From positions 1-61,238 of the forward strand of contig WJMH01000012.1 in NCBI GenBank assembly GCA_014728045.1: a stretch of DNA of 61,238 nucleotides, read 5' to 3'. Under the pieces are notes generated by a model, which was not told the origin of the DNA, made no database searches, and was given only the letters and a program-made list of their open reading frames with translations. The position numbers and the translations under genes are program-made. How positions within the stretch are numbered: the first letter of the stretch is position 1; each line of letters starts with the position of its first letter. The stretch is from Candidatus Omnitrophota bacterium (GTDB lineage: Bacteria > Omnitrophota > Gorgyraeia > Tantalellales > Tantalellaceae). Below, in pieces: positions 48,301 to 61,238 of this stretch.

Positions 48301-51300
48301 GAACAGGGAGAGGGTAACGACAGCGCTCTGGGCGGCCCCTTGAGCATCATCACTGGCCTGATGCAGAAATGCAGCGCCCTTAACGAACGGGTCCTGGTGG
48401 AAAATATGGTCGAGCATCTGATGATGCTCCCGTATTCGCCCAACGAAAAGGTCCGGGCGGCTTTCCAGCAGTTCTACATGAAGCTTCTCACCGTCGATCC
48501 TGAAAGGGCGAGGACTTTTCTTTTTTATTTGATGACGCATTATTCCGAATATGGCGACGCGATCAAGGAAACCGACAATCCGGTTTTCGGTATTATGGAG
48601 TTCCTGCATGAGGCAGGTGACGAGAACTTTTATTATTTCCTCAGGAGGATAACCGCCTACACTTTCCGCGACCATTCCGGCCAGGTCAACGTCGGACCCA
48701 ACCATCCTCTCAGGTGCCGTACGCGGTGCGGGAGTTACGGTCCAGACCTTGAGGGGGTGATCAGGGACTCCATACATAACCATCTGGGCGTTTACGTTCT
48801 GGGGCTTCTGGAAAGATACCTGGAGTTCTGCGGTACGGGCGACTGGCGGATACTCGCTGATGAGGAATACCAGGTGGACGCTTTCAAGAATGACGAGTTC
48901 CCCCCGCAGGACGCGGTATTCCCCATGCAGACAGTGGAACTATACAAGGGGCCGGAGGCGGATGATACCTATGCCTTGAGAAGAAGCGAGATCGTAAGGG
49001 AGATCTTTCGCCTTCTGGAAGGCGAGTTCGCGGATGAATTAAAAGTCGCAGGAAAGACCAAGTGGGAGAAGCTCAGGAACATGACCGACGAACAGCTGCA
49101 GACGCTTTACGACGCTGTCAACGAAAAGCTCGATACCAGTCTCAAAGTCGACTATGCCGGGTACAGCTTCTCCGGGTACATATACGCTTACCGCGAACTC
49201 TGTAAAAGATACAAGAGAGTGGCGAGCGTCGAGAAACTTACGGATGAACTGGTCAAACTGGCCAGGAACTACAGGGTAAGCAACAGGGTCATTACCGGTA
49301 ACAGGTGGGCCAAGGAGGATGACCCGGCATACCTGGCGATAAAGAGCGATGACCCGGCCGAAGCACTTTCGGCAATACTGAGGGCCAAGAGGAACATACG
49401 GAATGAAGTCTTCAGCGGTGAGCTTGATTATGATCGCCTGGAGATCATGGAACAGTTCCAGCGGGACTGGGGCAGGGATGATACGGGTAACGCCTACGGG
49501 GGAGCATGGGTCAAGGACGACCTTGTCGGTCTTTACATGACCGATAACATGCTCACCATGATAGAGAACCTGCACATAGAGAGAGCCTCAAGGCAGTTCA
49601 TGGAGATAAATTCACGGAATATCGTAAGCGCGCTTGAGTATCTGAGAGTCCTCGCCGAACTGAGTTATACAGAGGGACTCGTTTCGCGTTCTTTCAGGGA
49701 CCATGTCGATACGCTTCTTCAGAGGAAGGGCCTGGACTTCTCCGTGGCCAGGGATATAATCCATTTCATGCAGCAGGAATTCGTAGAGATAAAGAACTAT
49801 ATCAACCAGAACTCGGAGAACTACATCCACGCCATGCTGGACGCCGAGGGAATATACGGCGAGCGCAGGACAAAAGAATTTGACAGAAGGCTCAACGAAC
49901 TTATCAATTATGACAAGGTCTACAATTCGGCCAGAGGTCTGATAAGAAAGATCGGCAAATACGCCGAAAAACGAAGAGGGGTTTTCATAGAAGGCGAAGA
50001 GGAGAAACCGGTGGAGGAAGAGCCACTGCTCATCGGAGGGACCGTGCCAGGGGAAGCCCTGGATAAGACCGTTTCGTCGGGCCGGTACGCGCTTTCCTCT
50101 AAAGGACTTGAGCTGGCGAGGACCTCCTCGGAAGGATTGCCCATACCCGAGGGCGTAATAATACCCGCCACAGCATCGGATGAAGTAACGGATGAACTTG
50201 CCGTAGAAGGCATCAGGATGCTCGAACGCCATCTTAATACCCTTGAGGGTTTCGAGAACATGAAGTTCGGTTCTTCACAGGACCCGCTTATTGTCTCGGT
50301 GAGGTCGGGAGCCTATGTCGTGATGCCCGGACAGATGCCGACGATAGCCAATGTCGGTCTTTCAAGGGATACCATTGACGGTTTTACTGATCAGCTTGTT
50401 GAACGCGGCGTAGATCTGCGGGACGCACGCTGGACCGCCTGGGACTGTTATTCGAGGTTCCTGCAGAGTTACGGGGTTTCAGTGCTGGGAATAAGCGAAC
50501 AGCATTTTATTTCCCGGGAGGAAGATCTGCTGAGCGAGACCGGTGCAGCTGATAAAAAGGACCTTTCACTTGAGAAAATGAAGGCCCTGGCCGGACGGTT
50601 CGAAGGCGTGATCATTGACGTTGCCGGCAGGGATAAGCTGCCCCTGACCGCGGAAGAACAGTTCAAGTACTGCGTGGCCGCGGTTAAACGGTCCTGGGCC
50701 GAATCGGACGATTACCGTGATAATATTGGCCTTAAGGGAAGATGGCCGGGAACCGCGGTGCTTATACAGCGCATGGTCTTCGGAAATATAAACAGGGATT
50801 CGGGTGTCGGGGTAGTAAATTCACGGATGGTGAACGTGCGTAAACTGGGGCTTGAAGGCGATTTCCTCTGGTTCGGCCAGGGGGACGACATAGCCCAGCA
50901 CCGGGCCGAGGGCCTGGTCCAGATACAGGATATCGGCGAGCAGACGCCTTGGAAAAAAGACCTTGAAAGATACGCCGAGATGATCGAGACATCCCTGGGT
51001 ACCATGGCGGAAATAGAGTTCACTGTGGAACTTGGCAAGGTGTACATATTGCAGGTCAGGGACGCCTATATCGATGTTCGCGCGCAGGATTACCTGTTGA
51101 TGCCTTCTGAGGGTGACCTCCTGGCCAGAAGGGGCAGGGTCATACCCGCCTCGGGAGGAGCCTATAGAGGCAAGGTATACGTGCTCCACGGGCGCAAGCC
51201 CGATCTCGAAGAGATAGACCGGCTGTACGCCGAATCCAGGGCGGCAGGCGGTGACGGCGTATTGATAGTCGCCGATGACCTCAGTCCCGAGCAGCTGGGC

Positions 51301-54225
51301 AGGCTCATCCTCAGGGATGATAAGGGCCGTCTCAAGATAGGAGGGATCATAACAAAGCGCGGCGGTAAACTGTCTCATGCCGGCGATATAGCCAGGGCGC
51401 ACCGCATGGCCGCTGTCGCCAACGTGAAAGATATAAGGTTCCAGTCCCCGGAAATTAAAAGAAAAGGCTTTTTCATCAACGACAGGCGTATACTGGAAGG
51501 GGAAATGCTGTCCATATCAGGTACTACCGGGATAATTTACCAGGGCCTTCTGCCGCTTTCGGTGGGTGAATTCATCGACGGAGGTATCCAGCCCACTATT
51601 TCCTACAGTTATTTCGTTGAACATCTCAAACGGCGCGGTCAGGTGCTCACGGTGATCAATCAGGTGCTGGACGCGATACAGGAGAAGAAGGACGTGAATC
51701 TTTTGGCCTATCTGAGGACCCTTGTGGACGTGCACAGTGAGATGCTGCAGAAAAAGGCACCTTACGTGTTCGCCGTTATCAACGGCGTTCTTGAAAGCGG
51801 TTCCATACAGATCGACCAGCTCAGGAGCAAGGTCAAGGACGCTCTCGGGCAGAAAGGCGGTGAGACCGCTGCCGGGGCCGTGACCAAACAGATGGAACGG
51901 ACCATCACTCGTGCTCTTGCCAGCAAGGAGTTCATTGACGAGTTCGGTATTTCTTCGGAAGACATATCCGATATCATCTTTATGGGAGAAAGCGCGGAAA
52001 GCCTGCGGGGAAGGATGGTGGTCGATCTTACCCTGCAGGTCAAAGGAGAAGGTGATCGGTCGGATCTGATCCCCCTGCGGGTCGCCCTCTACAAGGTGGG
52101 TTATGACCTTGACCCTGATCTATTGGCCACCAACGAAACCTTGGCGACCAGGCTTATAGATTATCTGGAAGAAGGTATTATGACCGGCAAGCAGGAGATA
52201 CTTTACGAGGCGGGAATACCTCCTAACACGATAAGGGAGGCCTATGAAAACGCCGAAAGGGACAGAGAGAAGGCCGTCATCGCCCTGGCATCCCGCCTTG
52301 CGGAACTGGATGTCGCTTACGACCAGATGCAGCGCGCGGTCGCACGGATAGGGACCCTTAACACCGCAGAGATGTACCGTCTGCACAAAGCCATGGACAG
52401 GAGCTTCACCAGGAGCAAGATGGTGTTCATGGTGCTACCCGAAAAAGAGGATTACGAGGCGATCAAGATACGTTCAGGAAAGGTCTACCCGACGCTGAAC
52501 GATGTCCTGATGAGCAAGCATTTCGGGGGAAGACGTCTCACGTCCGAACAGCTCAAAGGTCTAAAGGCCCAGGTCGCCAGATTATTGTTCAGGGCCTATG
52601 ACAGCAGACTTGATGTGTATGACACCCTCAGCAGTGCTTTCGGCCTTAAGAAGCGGCATGCCCACATGATGTATTCTGAGATGGCCGATGAGATCGCGAA
52701 GATAAAGCCCGGTGACCTGACCGAAGAAAAGCGCGAACTTTTACGGGGCCTTTTCGGTATAGAGGACCGTTCCGGGATCGGAGAAAAGCTCAGGTACGAG
52801 TATACCAGACTTGGTTTCATGAAAAGGTTCCCCATGACTATAAGGCCCCAGGACCTTATAGTCAGGCCCTGGAAGAGCGATAAGATGAAGGTCGAGGTCG
52901 TTAGCTGGGGGTCTTTCGTGCGGCGGGCCGACGAGAACGAGGTGTTAAGATATCTGCATGAACAGATGAAACTGCCCTACCAGACGATATTCAGGGCCAT
53001 GGCCGGTCTCTACGGTCATAGAAAAGCCCTTGACTTCATAAGGCTCGCCTATTTGCGGGAGCCCGCCGGAACGTACCTTTCGAAAGTGCTTTTGACGAAG
53101 ATCTCTGAGATAACCGCTGTATCCAGCATAACGGTAGGTATACCTAAAGGTACGTTCAACAAACTTGAAGCCCGTGATATAGCCAGGCTCGACAAGGCGG
53201 CGCACATAAGGATTGCGGTGCTGGAAAGCGCCGATAGAGAGGGCATGCTGGATGAGGTCGAACAGGCCAGACGTAGGAATAATTCCGCTTCTTCTGTTCT
53301 GGTGGATACGGATGGGAAGATGACGTCCGGGCGCACGGCTTCAGTGATACTATCCTTTGCAAGGGAAGTTAAGAACAAGATCTTTCTGCTGGGGCATCCT
53401 GAAGTCACTGATCTGACGCCAGAGAACATATCCAAGATAGACGACCTTCCGAGGCTTTTGAGGGAAATAGGTTCAAAATATCTTGACGTGCTGGAACCCC
53501 TGGAACTGTCGTCAGTAAGCATTTACAACATGAGGGTAAAGAATTCCTACAGCTCTGTCAATACCCGGGACAGGGTGAAGTACTCCCCGAGGTCGCTGGA
53601 CGAACAGAAGAGCTCCAGGCTCGTGCATTACGCCGACGGCCAGGATATCCTGGATGGGGGGAGGACGATAGTGCCTCCCGGGCTTGAAATCGCCAGGAGG
53701 CGGAGAAGGATGAACGTTACCGTGGATAATGACCGGCTTCAGGACAGTTTCATGATAATGGCACCTGAGAGTATTCGCACCCTGGAAGAGAAGAATCTTT
53801 TCAGGGACAGGATCATCGAGATGTGGATGCTGGAGGGGGTCATTTCAAAGCAGGACGTGATAATACTTGACCGCAAAGAGGAAGGGTACAGTAATAGTGA
53901 CCTCTTCGAAAGAGTAAGGCAGGTCGAGCCGGAGGCGGATGTGTCCAATGTGGGCATCAGGGTGATAAGCGGTAAACTGGGTTATGAGAACAGGCAGCTT
54001 CTGCAGCTCGATCTTGCACCGGAGGCCACTAATAACTTCAACCAGTACGAGGTCTTCGTGAACCTTCTTTTAACGGGAGAGCCGGGCAAGCTCACCGGCC
54101 TGGCCGGGGTAAAGGCTCTTGAAGGGAAACTGTATATTTATCTGCCTGAAGCCAGACCCGTCGATTTCGAGAAGGAATTGCGCGTTTATTACGAGAAATA
54201 CCGGCAGGTGCTTATAAGAGCTTAA
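34756..54225 (+). CDS. Giant multidomain protein B (6,489 aa): signal peptide, Tiki/ChaN-like N-domain, SAM methyltransferase, NAGPA-like domain, zincin, HD domains, 2 CPBP-like proteases, 2 kinase-like domains, PPDK-like ATP-grasp plus His domain, conserved C-terminal domain
   Basis: Uninterrupted ORF with GTG start, RBS and signal-like N-terminus (MLKRTKFLKIVSILILLIFVHEQLGWT); ends TAA at 54223-54225. Confidence 0.97.
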   Translation: MLKRTKFLKIVSILILLIFVHEQLGWTYDGTAVWTQLNEVPSRSGNKLTRQIKIPNDVGEVCQASTGQAGEVIINIQDAHASLSSQHSIVDILDTLVANYDVRFIALEGSQGYIDTTLLKTFPDEKIRKNTAEFLMREGRMSAGEFFDATRDRKDLVLYGVEDNALYRRNVEGFRKIMDERAHYARQVIALRDQLDELAKKIFSPELYLLARCSRLHRQGRLSFSDYWKEIKGLSGDEASVEGLVNVEKLLESIRTEENIDFAGANLQRRQLIDVLSGTMDQGDIEKLVLRSLLFKKNKISQSDFHGYLIDLAEAYGVDLSCYGDLARFTEYVRLYESIDIISLFREVSLFEERLRESLFRNGDERELARWIKLTRLTGDLYNVELSNDDYADIASRIGECDGISCARFIRRACTEYGVPVGPGYDAGNIFGGVEKALEFYRVAEERNSAILTNTIRSMRRENKQVAALITGGFHTGGLTRLMRENRLSYLVVTPKFEKGKERPYIAILTNKKKPYQRLLESGKYQLAISAYFQDMDEDKFVSAAVYALSNVVKEGGNWRYEADRWYRLYRDEHARLKEESQEKIKGSLAPEEFARILGVGEYEGQGQLRIENWQDTVMVARIKDDQSAYFRLDLGEGGVLESPRVLSPRQGRKILAALDRIKDSEGGRGLEERVGELEGQLQRITELVEGDLKSSRDEELISRLGTDRELLFAVVSRLDGPGEVTRDQVASKLKADSGFALPGGWDKNARLANAVEEFTLLVKDTRKDINRIKSDLSNNQKLVKSIAGIFLGNREDLTAGNVADFLQRDMKEPLYGRWDEVPSFRKAVQEFTEWVGKVTPQIMDQKRKSYHWDIADQGRFDNTMAVFSMLFRRIGISEGREEAPVISRIRGTPERPVKVLEVGSGKLLPVTGYFRGTLGSYMSRHGGSFKSTFTRAYEEGFPNLKAEAIDPRLEDRPEKGFHRGNALKMDMFKDEDFDDIFAFMVFNPECYYEYSSFNEEFWEENFPGELMTEEKYYGKIAAELLRILKPGGRLYMSTGTRHNDIFNRILLESGFRCEYLDNEVGYQVFAKPAGDPLSEEERRVLTKRSLSRVYQYLTHCISIIKAQLELVPEEGELSDSQIEALNKIGDTAENMLEELRGDDLYVPYVKAVKNLLSNDSPGSLYYILGCLQPFLTYSRVLPPKRNINKKYYQHMKKSLEEMVTIASRIDEAGIEDIRFFDSEKSGEEYVSLRDWQRRRPISSSEWLTYLFDTGREDLVDRIMRSTGSREVFEKYIPSVNVFMEMADSGRVAPGPGEEELFKDTRGFLLETDPSRLEELGGFASSKIASSFLEEEKRPFSSGGGGFPSILSILLAGGVWTLTQGVVSAAEPAAGRVTFSAAGALGVFLSTGTVVALLAFSAGAIVIALISSKVLKKYFSRTYLGRTRLRSFLIGAAAFMLFFFTFNMAESRGPKSLKDLLRTPVSNAKQIINSLRSEEPEKEVALGVRHSLSSIKGIPAETILTGTGTRMRLVPYSRVQDLISSPPEGYRIYGVFNTAPQRNGRHTTLVGSQGRVLRARNSISTRAGGAFYLKYPDGTARIVSNTDENYEKYIEGEDFEVAIQAGPLVKENGSIKDSLPTESTSRIYVGVDSLTNRTKFMHVGSGVTGYSDVEEVLEKHFKGFAEVMLFDCGQFDITEVSRDGVAGKELEGEEVYCLAVMGKDLPGRKPFAEPDWKKSPLYLAVLSGIAGIITPFLFSDGVTSSLMLILASVTGLYAASFGIWKHLLLGGVRRGSFRSAEYRSSSREVARQRVQILFAEISRSLTGGRVSRKSRDLVGGSIDFARGPAQVVLVDEDSSQEEKDILGTDHAAFDKQKNLLYITGNMARAPDWLLSVILAHETAHRFTRSECRANLFTLFNIPGAINTLKGIFFTPVDYRMASFAKDADIRQRNTRKARLAQLLAGRMKNEGYDISAEDISTLGRVFLARNAFSGDTAKLFAFLEKEGIELSRTGRLLSEYYNSYRDFYDAYRSASSGGRLDASLVDANRLLPIIRLVDTFEEDQDRIGSVITRLDMESFKHTFQLLEEVFEREGISDRRALSVLKTLMGERDKGLINMMAEARGTGALTVSDRVLMETSTPKERIYQFNNGLLKDTGEREYALMVFRMGLPERIKRRVKHYLEANGFDVASIESRKAGMDRVLSYWGEGGMLEEALSELAEDGVGIFRAKVALARGDGRDFENWFARVQSEHPELVSVKRLGFWLEVLRRGYETVIVRSSVPRERLSRKFAAPEEAVGMKFQDFFSEYVVGDENAFRAEPESLRGKFIEPALHPRGELRRIFKSAQKVLPLEQVGLANCIDCPTYKKLNDKRQIYLPAERGSSPGEIPAVVRRFKKSLAPVMPLDKYAILAAPWVEETFFFFAPMFLGGLLFGVASYWTIALVAAVRGVFFFLHERPRELMSMPQEEILKLFNPSYQELRKHVYADLKYVTALAGAFGIEEGSEEMYMLRVIALTHDLGGVLGVKRDEQIEKKLMLLALNKNVAYRNRDPLDVEAELVSKGAVLTDEEKAFISTMDHSNNSLRILDSCDIKVPPVVRKIISGHMESPTQKELAGWTEQERRLFACFAIADVFETGNNYYKQTGRDPEYWRSFESPDETMKFIREVKFRNRHLLVPYLEKAEEFISAGGFQEAIEFSRKPISEAEMSMEIIPRAPPPRRTVPLAVAVSGALFPGLPLVLPQLSLAPGLFIVGSTTLIIMLHAAANALALFSGKLPATIDTERFGRDKRHVILQTNGNVSDTGDALYNEVFSGAAQIIKEREFFTSEQLSILGGNVKFRLVEGTKYLIDAVDLTGKSDWVISVNRFIFDNYHSDKEACLTKLAYLLASQYDHILFTEFCRERNFEPGVGESAAINLLRDTARVNDNRDDAEKLARFLEMAKFPLRDGEASADETPSGELPYFADFEYEYGKLLSKIREGSFYGLDFVGDPEWLDLIINFFNSNLEYFHNKRLKSGSVQTYLAFFYKMEHLDKSEVLKHLRWYENYSDYGWLKAKLGDDFRTSTMIETEEERKVNIYYNLSNEEYRTSDLAKRLFPEEDPDFLKKTVEGLFPGIRFHVRDLEEVYVRFLGEGVKKDAFYCMLVTEEGPYEFVLLLRHKEVDDEGYEIIQPNLLEPGEMEQLKWANIQFPDRAPRIGSVITKPGTDTVIQMGVSYLGKDLGRIASSSNNKLTDEAKLHFLRSGIACYIKGAFRMGGFRVVDDPKPQNLSSLDMKVSIVDYGKRSRGDRIVFLTKLVKFLASDRGFWGIGGIGFEGETRYNTIFDAFLEAFESYRGPRNINREYRKALGIELLRTIYEDPYNLLTEKATGEPLPVKKALKEYLENVFKHYRPSYVLASDRLVEEFDWDHVARRCARIDAGEEVVHFASPSSGRNPYWYIARMAGVSEKAMAVEDLTAGEMEDMVDLIMLDYLTVPSNEYLVMLKKLSRRLRVEPVIPGTKEEYRAWLRTLKEQARALSEGRDIEQRTPQVDGRLDGDFLLSLCRPQVEAILEDLASLPEGYMPLLDNPHVAFRKEEVLLSVADRWVKESSGVEDAAMVELMEKAREKLIALGGSAEVGEKTPDDFGKSFYGRIEGLSPRIRAEVIVDEAARNGITRLTIQDKDTAEEAVSYARKKGYLIDLTYYRGIPAVGWKKAKKPSMRPETAPVRERKKGAGVPAMPAGDMPMEKSGFYRAWEEAVFTGHAPGRYFPTITKDPAEQLGSFREGAEFLYNYKKIIPGLNYIASMEPDEREMARRLSREIFTKLRIEKWPLKDTERLNSLRGMVRNLMTAVYNDSRTGEKMRRIMRGVTNMIGLLTLFREHALCIERLIRSGKVPGGVDSLRPYIPEKFLDVPGGVSEREYFDFMAGLVPYQRVFEKGIHAELSGTVLERVDRGTTSMKAYTSDQLHFVVKFPDPEQQRDVRKDIKSGLVMARMHLGGLAANTLPIRDISIRTSQGTEQLSEALIQTKVTPLGEAISQMDEAGDSQGVESLLAKWWNLQKQMWQRGVLDRRMDLLNGYGYDEVTGRVLLIGFHELSREVGDFWPEGLADNIIELNDKRNIEKLSETAPLVNAAESYASIGSEIKEGLRVVKNDQGEVYVSLWPSEEEMSSEELYIPLNDPFRIDDKEFGKIIGIIERLMQSGSFFEGELADEVISGMLAHIKAEVFGVFAEREQALPGEAISPAGPWGGQAPLEPSTLRSLKRMVLPGMGFWQYALGVAPWLEEVVFFAAPAVISHVFFGLDAVGAFLFVASSRAAFFMLHEGARPHAPPAEYFLPLAVSAAGAALSVLPGVVPELGSMPAVFIPVSTALLALLHLTANVVSFITGYKPASIDGGKEGPADPWQGLDRYARKVYTNIVQKSFLFKQAEEGELQAERYLNTYEEEDSEALRQALNELVDEHYLVRIEKEEDELYYGLGEKGRSMFMAATEDLLKAWIKGMKQNDLKWRRDHIRDISFGSMLRTAPAYKQPDPERMALFKKHYDKIFDVITELIKDEIRLFEQGEGNDSALGGPLSIITGLMQKCSALNERVLVENMVEHLMMLPYSPNEKVRAAFQQFYMKLLTVDPERARTFLFYLMTHYSEYGDAIKETDNPVFGIMEFLHEAGDENFYYFLRRITAYTFRDHSGQVNVGPNHPLRCRTRCGSYGPDLEGVIRDSIHNHLGVYVLGLLERYLEFCGTGDWRILADEEYQVDAFKNDEFPPQDAVFPMQTVELYKGPEADDTYALRRSEIVREIFRLLEGEFADELKVAGKTKWEKLRNMTDEQLQTLYDAVNEKLDTSLKVDYAGYSFSGYIYAYRELCKRYKRVASVEKLTDELVKLARNYRVSNRVITGNRWAKEDDPAYLAIKSDDPAEALSAILRAKRNIRNEVFSGELDYDRLEIMEQFQRDWGRDDTGNAYGGAWVKDDLVGLYMTDNMLTMIENLHIERASRQFMEINSRNIVSALEYLRVLAELSYTEGLVSRSFRDHVDTLLQRKGLDFSVARDIIHFMQQEFVEIKNYINQNSENYIHAMLDAEGIYGERRTKEFDRRLNELINYDKVYNSARGLIRKIGKYAEKRRGVFIEGEEEKPVEEEPLLIGGTVPGEALDKTVSSGRYALSSKGLELARTSSEGLPIPEGVIIPATASDEVTDELAVEGIRMLERHLNTLEGFENMKFGSSQDPLIVSVRSGAYVVMPGQMPTIANVGLSRDTIDGFTDQLVERGVDLRDARWTAWDCYSRFLQSYGVSVLGISEQHFISREEDLLSETGAADKKDLSLEKMKALAGRFEGVIIDVAGRDKLPLTAEEQFKYCVAAVKRSWAESDDYRDNIGLKGRWPGTAVLIQRMVFGNINRDSGVGVVNSRMVNVRKLGLEGDFLWFGQGDDIAQHRAEGLVQIQDIGEQTPWKKDLERYAEMIETSLGTMAEIEFTVELGKVYILQVRDAYIDVRAQDYLLMPSEGDLLARRGRVIPASGGAYRGKVYVLHGRKPDLEEIDRLYAESRAAGGDGVLIVADDLSPEQLGRLILRDDKGRLKIGGIITKRGGKLSHAGDIARAHRMAAVANVKDIRFQSPEIKRKGFFINDRRILEGEMLSISGTTGIIYQGLLPLSVGEFIDGGIQPTISYSYFVEHLKRRGQVLTVINQVLDAIQEKKDVNLLAYLRTLVDVHSEMLQKKAPYVFAVINGVLESGSIQIDQLRSKVKDALGQKGGETAAGAVTKQMERTITRALASKEFIDEFGISSEDISDIIFMGESAESLRGRMVVDLTLQVKGEGDRSDLIPLRVALYKVGYDLDPDLLATNETLATRLIDYLEEGIMTGKQEILYEAGIPPNTIREAYENAERDREKAVIALASRLAELDVAYDQMQRAVARIGTLNTAEMYRLHKAMDRSFTRSKMVFMVLPEKEDYEAIKIRSGKVYPTLNDVLMSKHFGGRRLTSEQLKGLKAQVARLLFRAYDSRLDVYDTLSSAFGLKKRHAHMMYSEMADEIAKIKPGDLTEEKRELLRGLFGIEDRSGIGEKLRYEYTRLGFMKRFPMTIRPQDLIVRPWKSDKMKVEVVSWGSFVRRADENEVLRYLHEQMKLPYQTIFRAMAGLYGHRKALDFIRLAYLREPAGTYLSKVLLTKISEITAVSSITVGIPKGTFNKLEARDIARLDKAAHIRIAVLESADREGMLDEVEQARRRNNSASSVLVDTDGKMTSGRTASVILSFAREVKNKIFLLGHPEVTDLTPENISKIDDLPRLLREIGSKYLDVLEPLELSSVSIYNMRVKNSYSSVNTRDRVKYSPRSLDEQKSSRLVHYADGQDILDGGRTIVPPGLEIARRRRRMNVTVDNDRLQDSFMIMAPESIRTLEEKNLFRDRIIEMWMLEGVISKQDVIILDRKEEGYSNSDLFERVRQVEPEADVSNVGIRVISGKLGYENRQLLQLDLAPEATNNFNQYEVFVNLLLTGEPGKLTGLAGVKALEGKLYIYLPEARPVDFEKELRVYYEKYRQVLIRA
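37441..37900 (+). other. Class I SAM-dependent methyltransferase-like domain in protein B
   Basis: VLEVGSG (motif I, 37453), AEAID (motif II), GNALKM..F.DEDFDDIF, ELLRILKPGGRLY. Confidence 0.8.
39300..39860 (+). other. Degenerate phosphodiester glycosidase (NAGPA/DUF2233)-like domain in protein B
   Basis: AIQAGPLVKENG, SRIYVGVD, G...SDV..VL and VMLFDCG resemble the family motifs GGP.L+.+G, PRTAIG and A+NLDGG, but diverge from them. Confidence 0.45.
40290..40450 (+). other. Zincin-like HExxH motif (HETAH) in protein B
   Basis: LLYIT...LSVILAHETAHRFTRSECRAN; His at 40393 and 40405, with a downstream Glu. Confidence 0.6.
41860..43030 (+). other. CPBP (CAAX protease/Abi)-like intramembrane protease domain split by an inserted HD domain
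   Basis: APWVEE (41941), FFFLH (H 42055), then the insert, then LHAAAN (H 42973, N 42985); colinear with the intact copy at 47401-47810. Confidence 0.7.
42070..42828 (+). other. HD-superfamily metal-dependent phosphohydrolase domain in protein B
   Basis: H (42139), THDLG (H 42241, D 42244), DHS (H 42424), GHM (H 42502), IADVFE (D 42583): the full H..HD..H..H..D ligand set. Confidence 0.85.
44041..44760 (+). other. Protein-kinase-like domain in protein B
   Basis: FLGEGVKKDAF (Gly-rich loop), DDPKPQN (catalytic loop, 44464-44484), IVDYG (DFG-like, 44512-44526); no clear VAIK lysine. Confidence 0.65.
46441..46920 (+). other. Second, probably inactive kinase-like domain in protein B
   Basis: RVDRGTTS, FVVKF (K 46534), GVLDRRMDLLNGYG and VLLIGF; the DFG Asp is replaced by Gly. 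Confidence 0.35.
47401..47810 (+). other. Intact CPBP (CAAX protease/Abi)-like intramembrane protease domain in protein B
   Basis: APWLEE (E 47470, 47473), FFMLH (H 47584) and LHLTAN (H 47746, N 47758), set in four hydrophobic helices. Confidence 0.7.
50080..51546 (+). other. Pyruvate phosphate dikinase-like ATP-grasp domain plus phospho-His swivel domain, with no C-terminal PEP/pyruvate barrel
   Basis: KG..L...GLPIPEG, PLIVSVRSGA..MPGQM.T..NVGL, WDCYSRFLQSY, GTAVLIQRMVFGN, GQGDDI, IEFTVE.G..YILQVR, GGKLSHAGDIAR (His 51376), GEMLSISGTTG.IYQG. Confidence 0.92.
53128..54222 (+). other. Conserved C-terminal domain of protein B (paralogous to the C-terminus of protein A)
   Basis: ITVGIP, SFARE...HPE, SIYNMRVKN, ISKQDVIIL, YIYLPEARPVDFEKELRVYYEKYRQVLIRA-stop. 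Confidence 0.8.
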
Positions 54226-54286
54226 GGTGTACTACGGAAAAACATGGAAATACAGTTAAAATATAAAATAGTTAGAAACATATATA

Positions 54287-54315
54287 TTGACTTTTATTGG
54301 CATTTACGCTATACT
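54287..54315 (+). promoter_or_regulatory. Putative sigma70-type promoter of gene C
   Basis: TTGACT (54287-54292), 17-nt spacer, TATACT (54310-54315): close to consensus. Confidence 0.65.
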
Positions 54316-54407
54316 TAGATATAGGCTGTAAAAATAGAAAAAGTCAGATACTTACACTAAGCGTGGAAGTGCGCTCAATATATATATAATATTATATGAA
54401 AACATTT

Positions 54408-54415
54408 AAAGGAGA
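54408..54415 (+). promoter_or_regulatory. Ribosome-binding site of gene C
   Basis: AAAGGAGA; the GGAG ends 6 nt upstream of ATG 54421. Confidence 0.8.
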
Positions 54416-54420
54416 AGACC

Positions 54421-55960
54421 ATGTATTCAAAAAGCCCTAAAAGATCCCTTTTCTTGAAGGCGGTAAGCGTTTTTCTTGTGCTTACCTTTTCCATGTACAA
54501 CATAAGCTATGCCGTTACCCAGGACAATCTGGAACCGGCCGGTATCAAGCAGGATATGCCTTTATCCGTGGAGGATATTGGTATAGCCATTGATTGCGGT
54601 ACGGTCAAGAACCGTTTCAACGGCAATGACGGGAAGGTCATAGTGCACATCCAGGACGCGCACTGTAATTACGAGGCGCAGTCCAATATAAACAAGATGC
54701 TTGACCAGCTGACAAGGGAATGCGAGATAGACATGATATCTGTCGAAGGGGCTGAAGGGATCGTCGACACTACATGGTTCAGGGCATTCCCGGACTCAGA
54801 GATACGCAAAGAGGTCGCTACTTATTTCATGAAAAAGGGCGAGATAACGGGCGCCGAATTCTTTTCCATAACAAGTGAATACCAGGGCACCATATTCGGT
54901 GCCGAGACCAGGGATTATTACGTGAAGAACCTGAGGGCCTTCACGGAAGTATATCCGTACAAGGAAACTATTGAGAAATATTTCACGGACGCCCGTACCG
55001 TGTCCAACCGTCTCAAATCCATAGTCTACACGCCGAAGCTCAAGGAACTGGACCTCAAGATAAGGTCTTTTGACGAAAAACAGACCGAGCTCAGCGATTA
55101 TGCCGCCTACCTTAATAAGACAGCCGAACAACAGAGAATAGATCTCAAGGACCTTGAGGATTTCAAAAAACTCGTCCAGACCCTCGAATACGAGGAAAAG
55201 ATAGATTTCGATATCGTTGACCAGGAAAGAAGCAAATATATCGATGTTCTCAGCAAAAAGATGGACAAGGAGAAGATGACCGAATTGGTGACCCAGAGCA
55301 TCAGGTTCAAGAAGGGTCATATCAAGGCGGTGGATTTCTATTCCTATCTCAGGGAACTGGCCAAGGAACACGATATAGATATGGTGCACGAGTACCAGAA
55401 CCTTTTTTATTACTATATATACACCAAACTTTATGAGGGTATCGATAACGAGAGGCTTTTCAAGGAGATCGACACTATTGAAGCCCGGCTCAAGGAGTCC
55501 TTTTTCGAGAACGGAACCCAGAGGAAGCTCGACAAGTACTCGAACATGCTGGATATGTTCATCGATCTCATAAACATAGAGCTTACCAATGACGATTATG
55601 ATCTATTCAAGGGATATTCCGAAGAGTTCACGCTTGAAGAGGTACTGGATTTCATGACAGGACTTGTGGAGAGGTACAACCTCAATTACACGGTCGACGG
55701 TATGCCCCTTGAGATAAAGAACAATATACCCAAGATGGTTGATTTCTACGAGATCGCCATAAAGAGGGATAACGCCCTTATCGAGAACACTCTCAAGCAG
55801 ATGCAGCAAGAGGGCAAGAACAGGTGCGTTCTCATAGCTGGCGGTTTCCACACCAGAGGTATTAAGCACATTCTTGAGAAAAAAGGTGTTTCTTACGTAG
55901 TGGTGACCCCCAAGATCACCAAAAATGTCGAAACGCCTTATATAAAGGTACTTACGAACC
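54421..55960 (+). other. Signal peptide plus conserved N-terminal domain of protein C (paralog of the protein B N-domain)
   Basis: HIQDAH (H 54661), SVEG (E 54745), KRD (R 55765), IAGGFH (H 55849), SYVVVTPK, PYIKVLTN. Confidence 0.75.
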
Positions 55961-58900
55961 AGAGGACGTCGCTTGAGGATATAATCACCGAAAGCGCGGC
56001 AGTTCCCGGTATAGGCATAACCGCGACACGGGAAGAGATAGTAAGGCCCAAGGGGGATATGCTGAGTCCGCTTCTCAGGGTAGCCTACACCATACCGATG
56101 TATCTTGAAGACCCGGAGGCGCTCAAAAAGCTTTCGGACGCGACAGGTCATATCCCGGAGAGCGAGTCGCTTTTCACCACGGCCGAAGGTTCGTATAAAG
56201 AGATGGTGACCCTGCTTGTGAGGGGCTGGCTCGTCAAGGTCAGGGAAAAGGCCGATCCGGAAGTATGGAAGACAGCGGTCGGAGACTGGCATCTTCTTCT
56301 CGGCGCTTTCCTCAAAAAATACGAGGAAGAGGCCGCAAAGCAGGGAACTCAGGTGATAGCGGGGCTTAAGATACCGGCCCCGGTACTTACCGAAGAGATG
56401 CTCGATGCCATAAGCGGCGAGTTCAGGGCCATATTCAGGGACGAGGTCGTTAAGAGCGTTACACCCGGGACCGAAACCGTTGATACATATGATATATATC
56501 CTTCTCTTACTTCAGCCCAGGCTGACGGGTACAATGAGGTGATCAGACCTTACATGGAGGCCACTCCGGACCCGGTAAAGATCTTTACTTTCAAGATAGA
56601 CGGCCGGAACAGGGAGATAAAGGTGTTCGCCCTTGAGAACCTCAAGGACGCCGTGGAGGAATACAACCTGGACCCCGTACACGGAGAAGAACTTCCCTTG
56701 ACCGTGGAAGTACATCCCGGACGTGGTCTTGGTCACGACGACCCCAGGCTTTACATATCAGCCGGCGCCTTGAAAGCCCTCAATGACAATCAGTTAAAAC
56801 GCTTGGCAAAGCATGAGCTTTATCATATACTTTTATTGGAAAAAGGTGAAGCTTATGACGAAGAGAAGGTCATCGAAATGATGGGAGGGGACAACCTTAT
56901 GGATATAAGGGTCACTCTGGCCAGGGTGGAGGAACAGAGGCAGGCCGTTAAAGCCGAAGAAGCCAAAAGAGTGCACGACAGCCTTATAAAAAGCTCTCTG
57001 GACATGGCTGAAGCCACTTCCAAAGGCATAGGCCCGGACGTGGTCATCATCGTAAGCTCTTCGGATGAACAGGCTGATTTCTGGCAGGAGAGGCTCACCG
57101 GTGACGATAATAAGACCGGTTCCGGCGAAGCTGTCAAGGAAGGCGCGGTCGTTCTTTCCGTGTCCGAATCGAATTGGAAGGGCGGCGCCGGCAATGGCAT
57201 GGGCACGCTTAACGGTTTTGTACAGGCCGCGCGTAAAGCGAACAGTCTCGGGCTTATAGACGTTGATTCATATGCTTCGGTTACGGAGTTCATTGACGCT
57301 ATGCTCACTTACTGCAAGGGCAAGGCCGCTTTCATGTTCCATACCGCGGGTAAAGGTACCCGTACCGCTCCGTTACCCGGTGCGGAGGTCAACTCAAAGC
57401 CGAATATCAAGCTTCCGAAGATGGTTGATGTGAAAGGCCAGCAGAGGCCGCTTACCATACTTGAGGCCGTTCTCATGGAAACCAATATTTACGCTCCTTC
57501 AAGGACAGACAGACTGGGTGTTTTCTGGGGTGACCAGGTGGTCATCAACGAGAACGATATATCCTTCGGCGGGAAGCACCACGTTGAGATATTCGGGCAG
57601 CTTGTTCCGCTGGATCCGGATATCAAGTCCTACGGAGTGCTCATTCCGGGAGAAGAAGGCGACTGTAAGCAGAGAGAGAAACTGTCTATGGATGAGGTCA
57701 AAAAACTGCTCCCGGAGGGCAGCAGCGACGTATACAAGAGCATAGGTTCATTCACTATTTCGCTCCCCTTTCTGGAAGCGATGATCATGATGCCAGAACA
57801 CAAAAAGCTGCTTGAGTCCGAATCGGGCAGCCTGAACACAGATCCCGACTGGTGGCAGCCGCTAACCTCCACGAGAGATGAGTATATAGAGATGATCGGC
57901 AAAAAAGGCGTCTCCCGCGCTAAAGCGGGCCAGACCTGGGACAGGATGCAGGACCTCTGGGTAAAATTCGTCGCTTCCGACAATTGGGACCCGGATAGCG
58001 GCCTGTACAGGCAGCTTGGATTCAACGACGTCGGGAAGAACTCGCTCTGGTGGGATTACGGGCAGAACAAATTCTACCTGAGGAACATGCAGATCCTCAC
58101 CGAGTACAGCCCCGAAGGGGAAGCTGCAAGGAATTTCTTTGACGCGGAGATAACCGACAGCAAGACTGACCAGCTGGAAATCGAAAAATCCGTCATCAAG
58201 AATTCCGATGTGAAAAGAGGAAGGCTCGTCAACTGTGTCGTCATAGACAGCCAGCTTGAAGAGGTCTACGCCGAGAACGCTGTTATTATAGGAAGCGTGG
58301 TATTAAAGCTTAACGCTGAGGACGCGTTGTGCTACAATGTCGTTAGCGAGTCCGTGAATCTCGCTCCGGGGCAGGTCCTGGCCAATATCTTCCATCCCAA
58401 ACTCGGACGTATACCGATGCGCACGGATATCGGAAGGGACGGCAGCGCCGACTGGAAAGGCGGAGTCCATGTATACGACAACGCTTACACTTACAGTAAG
58501 ATAGCCGAGCTGATGAAGGGCCTCAAGATGGAAGAGGTTATGGAGACCAAGAAAAAAGCTATTTCTGCGGTAAGGATAGGTTTAGATTGGGCGGGTAGAA
58601 GACAGGATCTCACCGCTCAGAATCTCAGCGACAAGAGAAATATAGGCATTTCAGAGGCACGCCACATCGTCGCGCACAGGATGCTGACTTTCGGTGACGT
58701 GCCGTATTTCACGGTGGCCAGTTACGCCAAGCTTTTTAATGTTTCCCCGCGCCAGGCGGGAGAAGAACTGGAGGACCTTGCTTCTGCGGAGAGGGAAGGC
58801 GCCCCGACAAGCGGCGTGGAAAGCCTTGAGGCCTATGTTACCCTTACAAAAGGGAAATTGAGCGACCTGGTGGACCAGGTCAACGAACAGGGGCTTATCA

Positions 58901-61238
58901 CGGCCCCCGAGAAAAAGATGCTCGATGACGCGATCGCGGTCGCCAAGGACATCGAGAGCCTGAGCTTTATATACGCGGCGATGCTCAACGAGAAAGGCTA
59001 CCTCAACAAGATAGATACGGGGGTAGAAGATGCTGTTGTGATATACCGGAAAGTTCCCACACAGAATAGAAAGGATGTAATGGAACAGAAGAAACCGTTA
59101 AAGTTCGGTACCAGCGGACTTCGCGATACCGTTGACAACATGACCGATCTTGAATGTTACATAAACACCAGGGGATTCATAAAATTCCTCAAGGAAAGAG
59201 GCGAGATAAGGTTCGAGGAAGGCGGCCCGGCACCGACGATAGTCGTAGGGGGCGACCGCCGTCCTTCCACGCCCAGGATAATGCTGGCTGTCATCAAGGC
59301 AATAGAGGATGAAGGCTGCGCGGCCGAATACATAGGTCTTGCGCCGAGTCCGACCGTTGCTTATTACGCCATGCAGAAGGGCCTGCCCAGCGTCATGGTC
59401 ACGGGTAGTCATATACCCGCGGACAGGAACGGCATCAAGTTCACCAAGAAGTCCGGAGAGGTGCTCAAGACCGACGAGACCGATATACTCAAGAACGTCG
59501 CCATAGCCAGAGAAGAGGAGTCCGAGAAGGGTTTCAAGGCCTCTGATTTCGGGCGGGAAGGCTTGTTCAAGGCTAAACGGGACCTTCCGGACGCGACCGA
59601 CAAGGGTATACACGAATATGTAAAACGTTATCTGGGAGTTTTCCCCTCGGACGCCCTTAAAGGCAAAAAAATAGTCCTTTACCAGCATTCCGCCGTGGGA
59701 AGGGATATAGTGCAGGAGATATTCGAGGGCCTTGGCGCCGAGGTTATCGTGGAGCAGAGGAGCGAGGAATTCGTTCCCGTGGACACCGAGAAAGTCCCCG
59801 AATCCTCGAGAAAGCTCTTCAAGGAATGGGCCGCAAAGCACGAGCCCGATTTTATAATTTTCACCGACGGTGATTCCGACAGACCCGGTTTCGTTGACGA
59901 GAAGGGTAATTTCCTTTCCGGAGACTCTCTCGGGGCGTTGGTATCGATGTACCTTGAGCCGGATTCGGTGGCTATTCCCACCAGCGCTAATGATGCCGTG
60001 GTGGATGCCCTTAAGAACAAGGGTATCGACGTCACCCAGACCAGGATCGGTTCGCCCTATGTCATAGCGGCAATGAACCATATGCTTGAGAAGAACCCGG
60101 ACGCTAAAGTGGCCAGTTGGGAATCCAACGGAGGATATTTATTGGGCAGCGAGGTCAAGATAGGCGGTAAGAGCCTTAAACCGTTACCTACAAGGGATGC
60201 GGTGCTCCCGCTTTTATTGCCGATGCTTCTTTCCATAAAGGAAGGAAAGACCGCTTCTGAGATGATTGCGACCAACCTTCCGGCGAGAGTCGTGGTTTCG
60301 GATGCCGTGAACAACAAGATGGAAGGCACCGAAGCGTATACCCCTGATATGGGCAAGGCGATCGTCAAGAAGTTCTCGCCCGAGGATTCCAATATAGCCG
60401 AATACGACTTCAACAGAAATGTTGTAACGTACAAGGACGATCTTGGGTTCCTGTCCGCGGACAGCAAAAGGGAGAGTGCTCCTGCCGAGCTTATCGAACA
60501 GATGCAGAGGATCAGGGATACTCTCGGTGAGTATTTCACCAATTCCGCCGTGGACAAGTTGACCTTTATCGACGGCATCAAGATGCATTTTGAGAACAAT
60601 GACGGTATACACATAAGGCCCTCCGGTAACGAGCCTATTCTCAGATTCTACGTGCAGGCTCCGACCCAGAAAAGGGCCCAGGAAATAGTGGATAACCGCC
60701 TGGAATACATAAGGCCCATCGTTCAGGCGATGGCAACCCCGGGCACCGAAGCGGTAAGGACCGATTCGGAATCCGGAAAGGCCATAGCCGAGCTGGACGA
60801 GAGGATCAAGGCAGGTAAGCCTGTCAGGTTCGTTCCTTCTTTCAGGACGGGAGCGGATGGTTACACCTGGGGTCAGCCTGTGGAAGAGAACGTGATACTT
60901 GAAATAATGGGTGCCAGGACACCTGAAGAGAAGGTAGCTCTCGCCCATGAGTACGGCATACCTCCGGAGGAGGTCATAGGCGAAAGATGGGTGGCTGCCG
61001 GCCAGGTCGATACGGATATGGGCGTGAAACTCCCATCAGACGTCCTGTCGCTGTGGCCGGACCAGATGCCGGGAAGTAATATCACGGCGAAGCTGCTGAC
61101 CTCTGGAAGGCCGCTCTCACTGCAGTATCACAGGTTCCCCGAGATGATCATACCTCTGGCGGACGGATACGCTTATCTGGGGCTTAATAGGGACGTGACG
61201 CCGGAAGAGTTCATGGATAACCTCCGTAAGGGTGATGT
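54421..61238 (+). CDS. Giant multidomain protein C (3'-partial, >=2,272 aa): signal peptide, Tiki/ChaN-like N-domain, zincin, FPGT/FKP-like nucleotidyltransferase, phosphomannomutase, type I phosphomannose isomerase
   Basis: Not in the ORF track because there is no stop in the window. My manual frame-1 translation from ATG 54421 (MYSKSPKRSLFLKAVSVFLVLTFSMYNISYA|V) to the window end has no stop codon. Strong RBS and promoter upstream. Confidence 0.95.
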   Translation, partial: MYSKSPKRSLFLKAVSVFLVLTFSMYNISYAVTQDNLEPAGIKQDMPLSVEDIGIAIDCGTVKNRFNGNDGKVIVHIQDAHCNYEAQSNINKMLDQLTRECEIDMISVEGAEGIVDTTWFRAFPDSEIRKEVATYFMKKGEITGAEFFSITSEYQGTIFGAETRDYYVKNLRAFTEVYPYKETIEKYFTDARTVSNRLKSIVYTPKLKELDLKIRSFDEKQTELSDYAAYLNKTAEQQRIDLKDLEDFKKLVQTLEYEEKIDFDIVDQERSKYIDVLSKKMDKEKMTELVTQSIRFKKGHIKAVDFYSYLRELAKEHDIDMVHEYQNLFYYYIYTKLYEGIDNERLFKEIDTIEARLKESFFENGTQRKLDKYSNMLDMFIDLINIELTNDDYDLFKGYSEEFTLEEVLDFMTGLVERYNLNYTVDGMPLEIKNNIPKMVDFYEIAIKRDNALIENTLKQMQQEGKNRCVLIAGGFHTRGIKHILEKKGVSYVVVTPKITKNVETPYIKVLTNQRTSLEDIITESAAVPGIGITATREEIVRPKGDMLSPLLRVAYTIPMYLEDPEALKKLSDATGHIPESESLFTTAEGSYKEMVTLLVRGWLVKVREKADPEVWKTAVGDWHLLLGAFLKKYEEEAAKQGTQVIAGLKIPAPVLTEEMLDAISGEFRAIFRDEVVKSVTPGTETVDTYDIYPSLTSAQADGYNEVIRPYMEATPDPVKIFTFKIDGRNREIKVFALENLKDAVEEYNLDPVHGEELPLTVEVHPGRGLGHDDPRLYISAGALKALNDNQLKRLAKHELYHILLLEKGEAYDEEKVIEMMGGDNLMDIRVTLARVEEQRQAVKAEEAKRVHDSLIKSSLDMAEATSKGIGPDVVIIVSSSDEQADFWQERLTGDDNKTGSGEAVKEGAVVLSVSESNWKGGAGNGMGTLNGFVQAARKANSLGLIDVDSYASVTEFIDAMLTYCKGKAAFMFHTAGKGTRTAPLPGAEVNSKPNIKLPKMVDVKGQQRPLTILEAVLMETNIYAPSRTDRLGVFWGDQVVINENDISFGGKHHVEIFGQLVPLDPDIKSYGVLIPGEEGDCKQREKLSMDEVKKLLPEGSSDVYKSIGSFTISLPFLEAMIMMPEHKKLLESESGSLNTDPDWWQPLTSTRDEYIEMIGKKGVSRAKAGQTWDRMQDLWVKFVASDNWDPDSGLYRQLGFNDVGKNSLWWDYGQNKFYLRNMQILTEYSPEGEAARNFFDAEITDSKTDQLEIEKSVIKNSDVKRGRLVNCVVIDSQLEEVYAENAVIIGSVVLKLNAEDALCYNVVSESVNLAPGQVLANIFHPKLGRIPMRTDIGRDGSADWKGGVHVYDNAYTYSKIAELMKGLKMEEVMETKKKAISAVRIGLDWAGRRQDLTAQNLSDKRNIGISEARHIVAHRMLTFGDVPYFTVASYAKLFNVSPRQAGEELEDLASAEREGAPTSGVESLEAYVTLTKGKLSDLVDQVNEQGLITAPEKKMLDDAIAVAKDIESLSFIYAAMLNEKGYLNKIDTGVEDAVVIYRKVPTQNRKDVMEQKKPLKFGTSGLRDTVDNMTDLECYINTRGFIKFLKERGEIRFEEGGPAPTIVVGGDRRPSTPRIMLAVIKAIEDEGCAAEYIGLAPSPTVAYYAMQKGLPSVMVTGSHIPADRNGIKFTKKSGEVLKTDETDILKNVAIAREEESEKGFKASDFGREGLFKAKRDLPDATDKGIHEYVKRYLGVFPSDALKGKKIVLYQHSAVGRDIVQEIFEGLGAEVIVEQRSEEFVPVDTEKVPESSRKLFKEWAAKHEPDFIIFTDGDSDRPGFVDEKGNFLSGDSLGALVSMYLEPDSVAIPTSANDAVVDALKNKGIDVTQTRIGSPYVIAAMNHMLEKNPDAKVASWESNGGYLLGSEVKIGGKSLKPLPTRDAVLPLLLPMLLSIKEGKTASEMIATNLPARVVVSDAVNNKMEGTEAYTPDMGKAIVKKFSPEDSNIAEYDFNRNVVTYKDDLGFLSADSKRESAPAELIEQMQRIRDTLGEYFTNSAVDKLTFIDGIKMHFENNDGIHIRPSGNEPILRFYVQAPTQKRAQEIVDNRLEYIRPIVQAMATPGTEAVRTDSESGKAIAELDERIKAGKPVRFVPSFRTGADGYTWGQPVEENVILEIMGARTPEEKVALAHEYGIPPEEVIGERWVAAGQVDTDMGVKLPSDVLSLWPDQMPGSNITAKLLTSGRPLSLQYHRFPEMIIPLADGYAYLGLNRDVTPEEFMDNLRKGD
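56700..56880 (+). other. Zincin-like HExxH motif (HELYH) in protein C
   Basis: VHPGRGLGHDDPRLYIS...AKHELYHILL...DEEKV; His at 56812 and 56824. Confidence 0.6.
57031..58500 (+). other. Sugar-1-phosphate nucleotidyltransferase domain (fucose-1-P guanylyltransferase / FKP N-domain-like) with a C-terminal beta-helix-like region
   Basis: DVVIIVSSSDEQA, GAGNGMGTL, FHTAGKGTRTAPL..SKP (57340), FWGDQ, WWDYG, then SVIKNSDVKRGRLVNCVVIDS..AVIIGSVV. Confidence 0.7.
59092..60720 (+). other. Complete phosphomannomutase / alpha-D-phosphohexomutase (ManB-type) domain in protein C
   Basis: KFGTSGLR, GGDRRPS, VTGSHIPADRNGIKF (phospho-Ser 59407), YQHSAVGRD, FVPVDTE, TDGDSDR (metal loop, 59866), TRIGSPYVIAAM, WESNGG, TRDA, IRPSGNEPILRFY. 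Confidence 0.95.
60820..61238 (+). other. Type I phosphomannose isomerase (cupin)-like domain, N-terminal part (cut by the window edge)
   Basis: YTWG, IGERW, AKLL...LSLQYH (Q 61123, H 61129), PEM (E 61141), YAYLGL...T.EEF. Three of the four Zn ligands are visible. Confidence 0.75.

Follow-up and report, generated by a model that had tools for sequence, protein, structure and literature searches.

Three nucleotide-sugar enzyme domains in one giant Omnitrophota protein, a probable NDP-mannose module

The supply of GDP-mannose is central to glycoconjugate synthesis, and its three enzymes, phosphomannose isomerase (PMI), phosphomannomutase (PMM) and a mannose-1-phosphate guanylyltransferase, are textbook knowledge; the fusions known to us among them are two-part. 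A stretch of 61,238 nucleotides from a Candidatus Omnitrophota assembly (GCA_014728045.1, contig WJMH01000012.1; the whole stretch is hereafter called the window) raises the question of whether one polypeptide can carry all three steps. The window contains three giant open reading frames (ORFs), A, B and C, all in the same direction, and an original prediction made from the sequence alone had placed a complete GDP-sugar pathway in protein C, with nucleotidyltransferase, PMM and PMI fused in the reverse of the pathway order. Our analysis confirmed this observation, as all three domain calls hold in one frame and in that order, and partly supported the interpretation attached to it. We consider it fairly probable that protein C is a nucleoside diphosphate (NDP)-mannose module, which reversibly connects fructose 6-phosphate (Fru-6-P), mannose 6-phosphate (Man-6-P), mannose 1-phosphate (Man-1-P) and NDP-mannose, probably GDP-mannose, with GTP as the most likely nucleotide of the transferase.

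The frame of protein C is free of stop codons from position 54400 to the last base of the window, and the ATG at 54421, preceded by an aaggag ribosome-binding site, opens a run of 2,272 codons. An exhaustive search with hidden Markov models (HMMs) retrieved a protein of 2,869 residues, P0122, which is 100% identical across all 2,272 residues encoded in the window and thus represents the full protein C. The window misses the final 597 residues, stopping at residue 2272, about 40% into the PMI-like domain, and the terminus of P0122 reads ...RRKVMWSV. The nearest relative in a genome is encoded on contig L001 of an Omnitrophota metagenome-assembled genome (MAG), with 81% identity over the query, and it likewise carries all three enzyme domains. 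About 80% of the 2,869-residue protein is dark to Pfam, and the PMM is the sole enzyme domain that standard tools detect.

For this mutase the evidence comes from Pfam, the PDB and sequence motifs (the coordinates of all features are collected in Table 1). The four Pfam domains PGM_PMM I-IV span residues 1561-2092 (nucleotides 59101-60696) with E-values of 4e-19 to 1e-7, and PF02878, PF02879, PF02880 and PF00408 score 69.1, 58.2, 33.0 and 32.3 bits, all above their gathering scores (22.5, 29.3, 20.7 and 23.1, respectively). This span and the presence of all four catalytic loops agree with the earlier call of a complete PMM at 59092-60720. The best relative in the Protein Data Bank (PDB) is 4hjh, labelled ‘Phosphomannomutase’ (E 1.4e-83). 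The domain is a complete phosphoglucomutase (PGM)/PMM enzyme, in which specificity for mannose or glucose is not fixed by sequence.

The transferase, in contrast to the mutase, is invisible to these resources. Its segment has no Pfam match even at E <= 10, no NCBIfam match, and no PDB match either by sequence (phmmer) or by an 82-sequence profile. It belongs to a family of at least 341 homologues (E down to 7e-204), nearly all named ‘hypothetical’, which includes stand-alone proteins of 500-550 residues and ranges over Omnitrophota (with stand-alone members at 55-60% identity), Dehalococcoidia, Planctomycetota, Lentisphaerota, Chlamydiia, Patescibacteria and stramenopile eukaryotes. The boundaries of the family HMM enclose the interval 57031-58500 originally proposed for this domain. 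The AlphaFold model (predicted local distance difference test score, pLDDT, 95.4; predicted template modelling score 0.94) consists of a Rossmann-like domain followed by a left-handed beta-helix, and its top Foldseek match is the GDP-fucose pyrophosphorylase part of Bacteroides fragilis FKP (9iis/9iit; E 2e-11, TMq 0.47), at only 10-11% identity. The earlier assignment to an FPGT/FKP-like rather than a ManC family was therefore borne out at the level of fold, with FKP on top and no PF00483 match, but not at the level of sequence, as the GFPP model PF07959 gave no match even at E <= 10. Neither of the ManC-type models, PF00483 and PF01050, matched protein C, nor did they match the isolated segment when the threshold was relaxed to E <= 10, and a ManC-type enzyme was rejected on the missing PF00483 match.

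Residue conservation in the transferase family is consistent with an active enzyme fold of this kind. The invariant columns of the family alignment comprise an H-T-A-G-x-G-x-R loop, then a Lys, an Asp-Gln pair and a later Lys, and the window copy, with its GKGTR motif at 57349-57363, retains every family-invariant residue (E916, H974, R981, K993, D1038 and K1087). The active-site residues of FKP are His73, Arg80, Lys89, Asp136 and Lys187 (PMC11982464), and the invariant residues of the family seem to follow a similar spacing, a likeness of spacing only. Two observations concern other branches of the family. Stramenopile homologues (P0052, P0055, P0085 and P0096), all uncharacterised proteins, come from oomycetes, Ectocarpus, Mallomonas and other transcriptomes; as the brown-algal guanylyltransferase step is currently assigned to a bifunctional MPI/MPG (PMC11468063), the family may offer a second candidate for it. 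In addition, a 548-residue paralogue lies upstream of a PMM-PMI gene on another contig (L002:16560-18206); its nucleotide-binding loop is strongly diverged, reading GRGERMSP as against GKGTRTAP, and the paralogue may represent a second, distinct branch.

The third domain required more sensitive comparisons. The PMI-like segment had no NCBIfam match, and it gave no PDB match, whether the window piece or the complete domain of the L001 orthologue or of P0122 was used; a homologue search with the last 179 residues encoded in the window was without hits, and a BLASTP comparison of the window piece with the P0049 PMI domain found nothing significant. The complete L001 domain retrieved one protein, the stand-alone P0121 (407 residues), which is 39% identical to it and 49% identical to the window piece, and which passes the PF21621 model MPI_cupin_dom (31.8 against a cut-off of 27). 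Profile comparison by hhalign was made against Pfam-certified PMI domains whose fusion partner is a member of this transferase family (the P0049 type), and it yielded 97.4-98% probability with a 3-sequence profile and 99.6% (E 6e-25, 258 columns) with a 37-sequence profile, the homology covering both the catalytic cupin and the C-terminal beta-sandwich. In an HMM search of 1.84 billion proteins, the PMI-like profile reached proteins of 290-380 residues (E 4e-13 to 2e-6); ten of them were scanned, and six match PMI models only, two above the cut-off.

The metal ligands are conserved accordingly among the 37 representatives: Q2235 is kept in 36 and H2237, E2241 and H2295 in all 37, while K2224, E2304 and D2322 are also retained in 36-37. 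The stretch Q2235-x-H2237-x3-E2241 lies within the window (nucleotides 61123-61143), and the fourth ligand, His2295, falls beyond its end and is seen in P0122 and L001. Relative to canonical PMIs the domain is without the loop of about 16 residues between the His and Glu ligands (H-x3-E), a deletion that makes the placement of the Glu ligand ambiguous, and a helical insert of about 100 residues precedes the beta-sandwich. The domain had been called a type I PMI with Q, H and E zinc ligands; the ligands stood, and the sequence points to a divergent type I subfamily with a shortened His-to-Glu loop, which the window cuts.

If the three domains act on one pathway, they should be associated elsewhere, and they are. 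Domain mapping of 68 representatives, with the cluster representatives each less than 50% identical, revealed the order N-terminal region, transferase, PMM, PMI-like domain and C-terminal domain in P0122 and in seven further proteins of 2,900-3,450 residues (P0126, P0132, P0135, P0142, P0146, P0150 and P0155), with the C-terminal domain undetected in P0126; other long proteins in the set hold subsets of these domains. The proposed functional coupling of the three enzymes would have suffered had no relative shown the co-fusion, which was found, in the same order, in these seven representatives and in L001, and adjacency elsewhere points the same way. The L002 copy is split by frameshifts, on a contig with 2.3x coverage. 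Shorter arrangements were also observed. The transferase is fused straight to PMI in proteins of about 820-840 residues (P0049 type), whose PMI part matches PF20511/PF21621; in Omnitrophota a stand-alone transferase gene is followed by a 948-residue PMM-PMI protein (its PMI part at 99.6% to PMI by hhalign), and in a Dehalococcoidia MAG by a 945-residue PMI-PMM protein, in a housekeeping context. Among 80 metagenome loci fetched with the transferase-family profile, PMM and/or PMI are directly adjacent and co-oriented in 20, and in 15 of the 48 loci flanked by 3 kb or more, against a chance expectation that we estimate at about one such locus. Five adjacency arrangements occur (NT-PMI-PMM, NT-PMM-PMI, NT-PMM, PMM-NT and NT-PMI, where NT is the transferase). 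Repeated fusion and adjacency in differing orders is classic evidence for consecutive steps, and its recurrence here supports consecutive action of the three activities. We also observed that in other Omnitrophota a related long protein (L003:1-5208 and L005:72-4475) keeps the beta-helix-containing region, the PMM and the C-terminal domain without the PMI-like domain, and that the next genes encode a stand-alone transferase and a PMM-PMI fusion, so that fused and split versions coexist in one locus.

The same associations could arise if the transferase used a different sugar 1-phosphate, L-fucose 1-phosphate or another hexose 1-phosphate, and if its company with PMM and PMI reflected shared regulation of GDP-sugars instead of consecutive steps. 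This alternative is distinctly improbable in our judgement. It draws on the GDP-fucose pyrophosphorylase as the best structural match, on the 33 of 48 informative loci in which neither PMM nor PMI is adjacent, a count that also speaks against the consecutive reading, and on Lentisphaerota, where the PMM/PMI association is absent and the (Lentisphaerae) context holds no mannose genes. Yet none of the loci examined has a fucokinase or any other anomeric kinase as a fusion partner or neighbour, a phosphohexomutase is the only producer of a sugar 1-phosphate that is repeatedly fused or adjacent, and PF07959 is not matched. The context argues for the hexose 1-phosphate of the fused mutase, over fucose 1-phosphate, as the substrate of the transferase.

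Which hexose this may be is suggested by neighbouring genes. In L001, the genes downstream of the orthologue encode two ABC permeases, an F5/8C-GH113 protein, two proteins with Mann_GBD/CBM27, another GH113 and a ROK kinase; this set recurs around P0001 and around P0121, the stand-alone PMI-like protein. As GH113, CBM27 and Mann_GBD, which we take to be mannan-specific families, adjoin the module, they support mannose as its sugar, and the genes look like a set for beta-mannan uptake and hydrolysis. The pathway had been proposed to start from Fru-6-P. Its steps match the domains, but the mannan locus downstream in L001 makes the salvage or catabolism of mannose no less likely than de novo synthesis starting at Fru-6-P, and it suggests that salvaged mannose, by way of the ROK kinase, may contribute to Man-6-P no less than Fru-6-P does.

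In the mechanism that we propose, protein C would be an N-terminally anchored multi-enzyme with three consecutive steps in its central 1,640 residues. The PMI-like zinc-cupin isomerase would interconvert Fru-6-P and Man-6-P, the phosphoserine mutase would interconvert Man-6-P and Man-1-P, and the transferase would form NDP-mannose and pyrophosphate from Man-1-P and a nucleoside triphosphate (NTP). In this lineage, Man-6-P would probably come from the mannose of imported beta-manno-oligosaccharides, and the module would split it between glycolysis (via the PMI) and NDP-mannose (via the PMM and the transferase). We infer mannose and GTP as substrates, channelling between the domains, the direction of flux and the cytoplasmic location discussed below.

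Several points have to be set against this mechanism. The activities of the transferase family and of the PMI-like subfamily are predictions; the transferase shows no sequence-level link to any characterised enzyme, and neither its nucleotide nor its sugar is readable from a fold match in which FKP is only modestly ahead of ADP-glucose pyrophosphorylases (E 2e-11 versus 3e-10; TMq 0.47 versus 0.3-0.37). The PMI-like domain has no Pfam match on the window piece, on the complete L001 domain or on full-length P0122, and the AlphaFold model of P0121 (pLDDT 45.9 from an 8-row alignment) is unusable for confirming the fold. The mutase scores far below every NCBIfam equivalog cut-off, the best being an archaeal GlmM model, and PGM/PMM enzymes are often bispecific. 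Finally, the mannan context was read from the loci of relatives, not from the genome of the window itself.

Part of this evidence would also fit a glucose module, in which the mutase is a phosphoglucomutase, the transferase makes the ADP-, UDP- or GDP-glucose from which glycogen-like or other glucans are built, and the cupin is a cupin-type glucose 6-phosphate isomerase or has another role. Such a module would explain why ADP-glucose pyrophosphorylases are the second-best structural matches at nearly equal E-values and why one source labels a member of the transferase family ‘ADP-glucose pyrophosphorylase’, and it is compatible with a mutase whose specificity cannot be read from sequence; a 2026 preprint also places the PGM/PMM domains of Omnitrophota long proteins in a ‘sugar metabolism’ module that includes starch synthase and GT1 domains (10.64898/2026.06.07.730766). 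However, in other phyla the transferase is fused or adjacent to PMI domains that Pfam certifies, the cupin is homologous to these at the 99.6% probability given above, the closest solved mutase is labelled a phosphomannomutase, and the adjoining genes belong to the mannan families. We therefore regard a glucose module as unlikely and retain the NDP-mannose module as the favoured reading.

On which side of the membrane would such a module work? The sole hydrophobic segment of protein C resembles a signal peptide or an N-terminal anchor of type II, and a terminus of this kind would, by the positive-inside rule, place the enzymes outside the cytoplasm, where GTP and sugar phosphates are not expected, a further difficulty for the proposed mechanism. 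The same location paradox has been raised for PGM/PMM and glycolytic domains in giant proteins of Omnitrophota, and such domains were predicted to be extracellular and the giant proteins linked to predation (West-Roberts et al., 2023, 10.1101/2023.11.21.568195), whereas a 2026 preprint favours an inner-membrane anchor with a cytoplasmic bulk for such proteins (10.64898/2026.06.07.730766).

In line with the extracellular prediction, protein C could be an exported or surface protein, whose domains act on released sugar phosphates outside the cytoplasm or in a prey cell, or else contribute to a predatory apparatus as modules for sugar binding or scaffolding, with no biosynthetic line. The K/K/R n-region, the hydrophobic core, the SYA-like end and the want of any other hydrophobic stretch are compatible with export, as are the giant multi-transmembrane neighbours A and B with SecA-like domains, and the conserved C-terminal domain with its ...RRKVMWSV tail in nearly all relatives. 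Against it, the catalytic and metal residues of all three domains are strictly kept in representatives below 50% identity, and this conservation points to real catalysis; the reactions require an NTP and phosphorylated sugars, stand-alone homologues of cytoplasmic type exist for all three enzymes in the same loci, and the 2026 preprint prefers the anchored cytoplasmic topology. An exported protein thus seems very unlikely to us, and an NDP-mannose module, presumably cytoplasmic, remains the reading that we prefer.

Comparison with known systems shows in which respects protein C departs from them. Functionally, protein C comes closest to the two-part type II PMI/GDP-mannose pyrophosphorylase (ManC/AlgA/XanB; PF00483 + PF01050), with which the P0049-type proteins and protein C share the joining of a Man-1-P nucleotidyltransferase and a cupin PMI in one polypeptide. 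Unlike it, protein C uses neither domain family, since its transferase is FKP-like with a beta-helix and its isomerase type I-like, and it inserts a mutase between them, giving three steps in an anchored protein of 2,869 residues. With FKP/FPGT (PF07959; 9iis/9iit) it shares a Rossmann-like nucleotidyltransferase followed by a left-handed beta-helix, but the partner is PMM/PMI and not a fucokinase. Its mutase has the DxDxDR, E-x-N-G-G, RxSGxxP and phosphoserine loops of the PMM subgroup, with 4hjh as the nearest solved structure, and differs in being part of a giant protein. With the Bacillus-type type I PMI (PF20511 + PF21621), the third domain shares the metal ligands Q-x-H, E and H and the C-terminal beta-sandwich, whereas protein C and its orthologues are unrecognised by Pfam, lack the insertion of about 16 residues and carry the helical insert. 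Like the PGM/PMM giants reported in Omnitrophota (10.1101/2023.11.21.568195; 10.64898/2026.06.07.730766), it is very long, anchored and multi-enzyme. Both of these studies name PGM/PMM among the Pfam domains, together with ROK kinases and genes for carbohydrate import close by; the passages searched make no mention of a pyrophosphorylase or nucleotidyltransferase, a PMI-like domain or a three-step reading, and mention mannose in just one of the two, in an unrelated context. In contrast to those published listings, both domains that flank the mutase of protein C are invisible to Pfam.

What is new here is that a known pathway is realised three-in-one with a transferase of an uncharacterised family and a PMI of a divergent subfamily, and a literature search found no trifunctional PMI/PMM/guanylyltransferase enzyme. 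A bolder proposal, which is close to evenly balanced in our judgement and leans towards doubt, is that the unnamed family of 500-550-residue transferases consists of unrecognised mannose-1-phosphate (probably guanylyl) transferases, and that protein C is the first polypeptide to carry the three steps from Fru-6-P to NDP-mannose; a more radical variant would have the entire module exported behind the signal-like N-terminus, to act outside the cell or on a prey cell. Under the bolder proposal, the pyrophosphorylase step would be performed by a family that goes entirely unrecognised by present annotation resources and that is widespread in uncultured bacteria and stramenopile eukaryotes, so that ‘missing manC’ gaps in metabolic reconstructions could be filled and a new scaffold for chemoenzymatic synthesis of nucleotide sugars would be at hand. 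More generally, giant proteins of Omnitrophota appear able to hold complete, ordered metabolic lines, and protein C sharpens the question of which side of the membrane their enzyme arrays face.

Table 1. Features of the window and of protein C, in positions of the window
Feature	Position	Strand	Basis or remark
Protein A	17-34420	+	11,467 aa ORF
Protein B	34756-54225	+	6,489 aa ORF
Protein C, N-terminal 2,272 of 2,869 residues	54421..61238	+	open frame to window end
N-terminal region, role unassigned	54421..56991	+	region common to most long relatives
Sole hydrophobic segment, aa 10-32, after K/K/R	54448..54516	+	Kyte-Doolittle scan of 2,272 aa
Sugar-1-phosphate nucleotidyltransferase-like domain with C-terminal left-handed beta-helix	56992..58572 (aa 858-1384)	+	family HMM boundaries
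Linker, ~170 aa	58573..59091	+	no Pfam match; loose alignment only, with P0022
Alpha-D-phosphohexomutase (PMM/PGM), four domains, Ser1663	59092..60720 (aa 1558-2100)	+	Pfam, PDB, motifs
Phosphoserine loop TGSHIP	59401-59418 (aa 1661)	+	motif scan
Metal loop DGDSDR	59866-59883 (aa 1816)	+	motif scan
Sugar-binding loop WESNGG	60118-60135 (aa 1900)	+	motif scan
Phosphate-binding loop RPSGNEP	60616-60636 (aa 2066)	+	motif scan
Divergent type I PMI-like cupin, first ~147 residues	60796..61238 (full domain aa 2126-2500)	+	hhalign, homologues, ligands

Outside the three enzyme domains, proteins B and C share an N-terminal module of about 520 residues (34756-36320 and 54421-55986; residues 3-520 of B and 7-522 of C, 31.7% identity, E 5e-76 by BLASTP), which follows directly after a signal- or anchor-like segment and contains the motifs IQDAH and GGFHTRG. 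Its sole Pfam hint is weak (the ChaN/Tiki-like PF04187, E 0.098), and the module heads most of the long relatives in the domain mapping. Just upstream of the transferase domain, an HELYH motif of the HExxH type (56812-56826) coincides with weak metallopeptidase hints in Pfam (PF18894, E 0.021), and this region could, from its sequence, be a candidate processing protease. At the other end, a C-terminal domain of about 350 residues is kept in nearly all C-type long proteins (residues 2501-2869 of P0122; L001:5100-6220), with RRKVMWSV-like tails and variants such as RRQVLWSV and QRRTMYSV, and it may be a sorting or assembly signal.

Protein A had been proposed to contain a GT2 glycosyltransferase as the acceptor of the activated sugar. 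Pfam at E <= 1e-4 (looser thresholds lay outside the search) gave no GT2, which leaves this acceptor unsupported, and the only domains that it reported on protein A were SecA-like and TPR domains. The SecA preprotein-binding and SecA P-loop domains lie at 6248-7270, and the protein has several transmembrane clusters, a combination reported as a hallmark of Omnitrophota giant proteins (West-Roberts et al., 2023, 10.1101/2023.11.21.568195). The last 400 or so residues of A and B are alike (33200-34420 and 53130-54225; 22.7% identity, E 2e-13), and the tail Y.YLP...D.E.E..Y..Y closes both proteins. It also stands at the end of a truncated ORF in L006, upstream of the gene for the stand-alone PMI-like protein P0121; the possibility that this upstream gene is a PMM remnant was ruled out, as the ORF is the end portion of a giant protein of the A/B type. 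Within the multi-transmembrane protein B, positions 50257-51531 encode a PPDK_N (ATP-grasp-like) and a PEP-utilizers mobile domain, a phosphotransfer module in an otherwise unannotated protein. The spacer between B and C measures 195 nucleotides and is AT-rich, and the G+C content at 54001-56000, which covers the spacer and the start of C, is 0.445, as against about 0.52 elsewhere.

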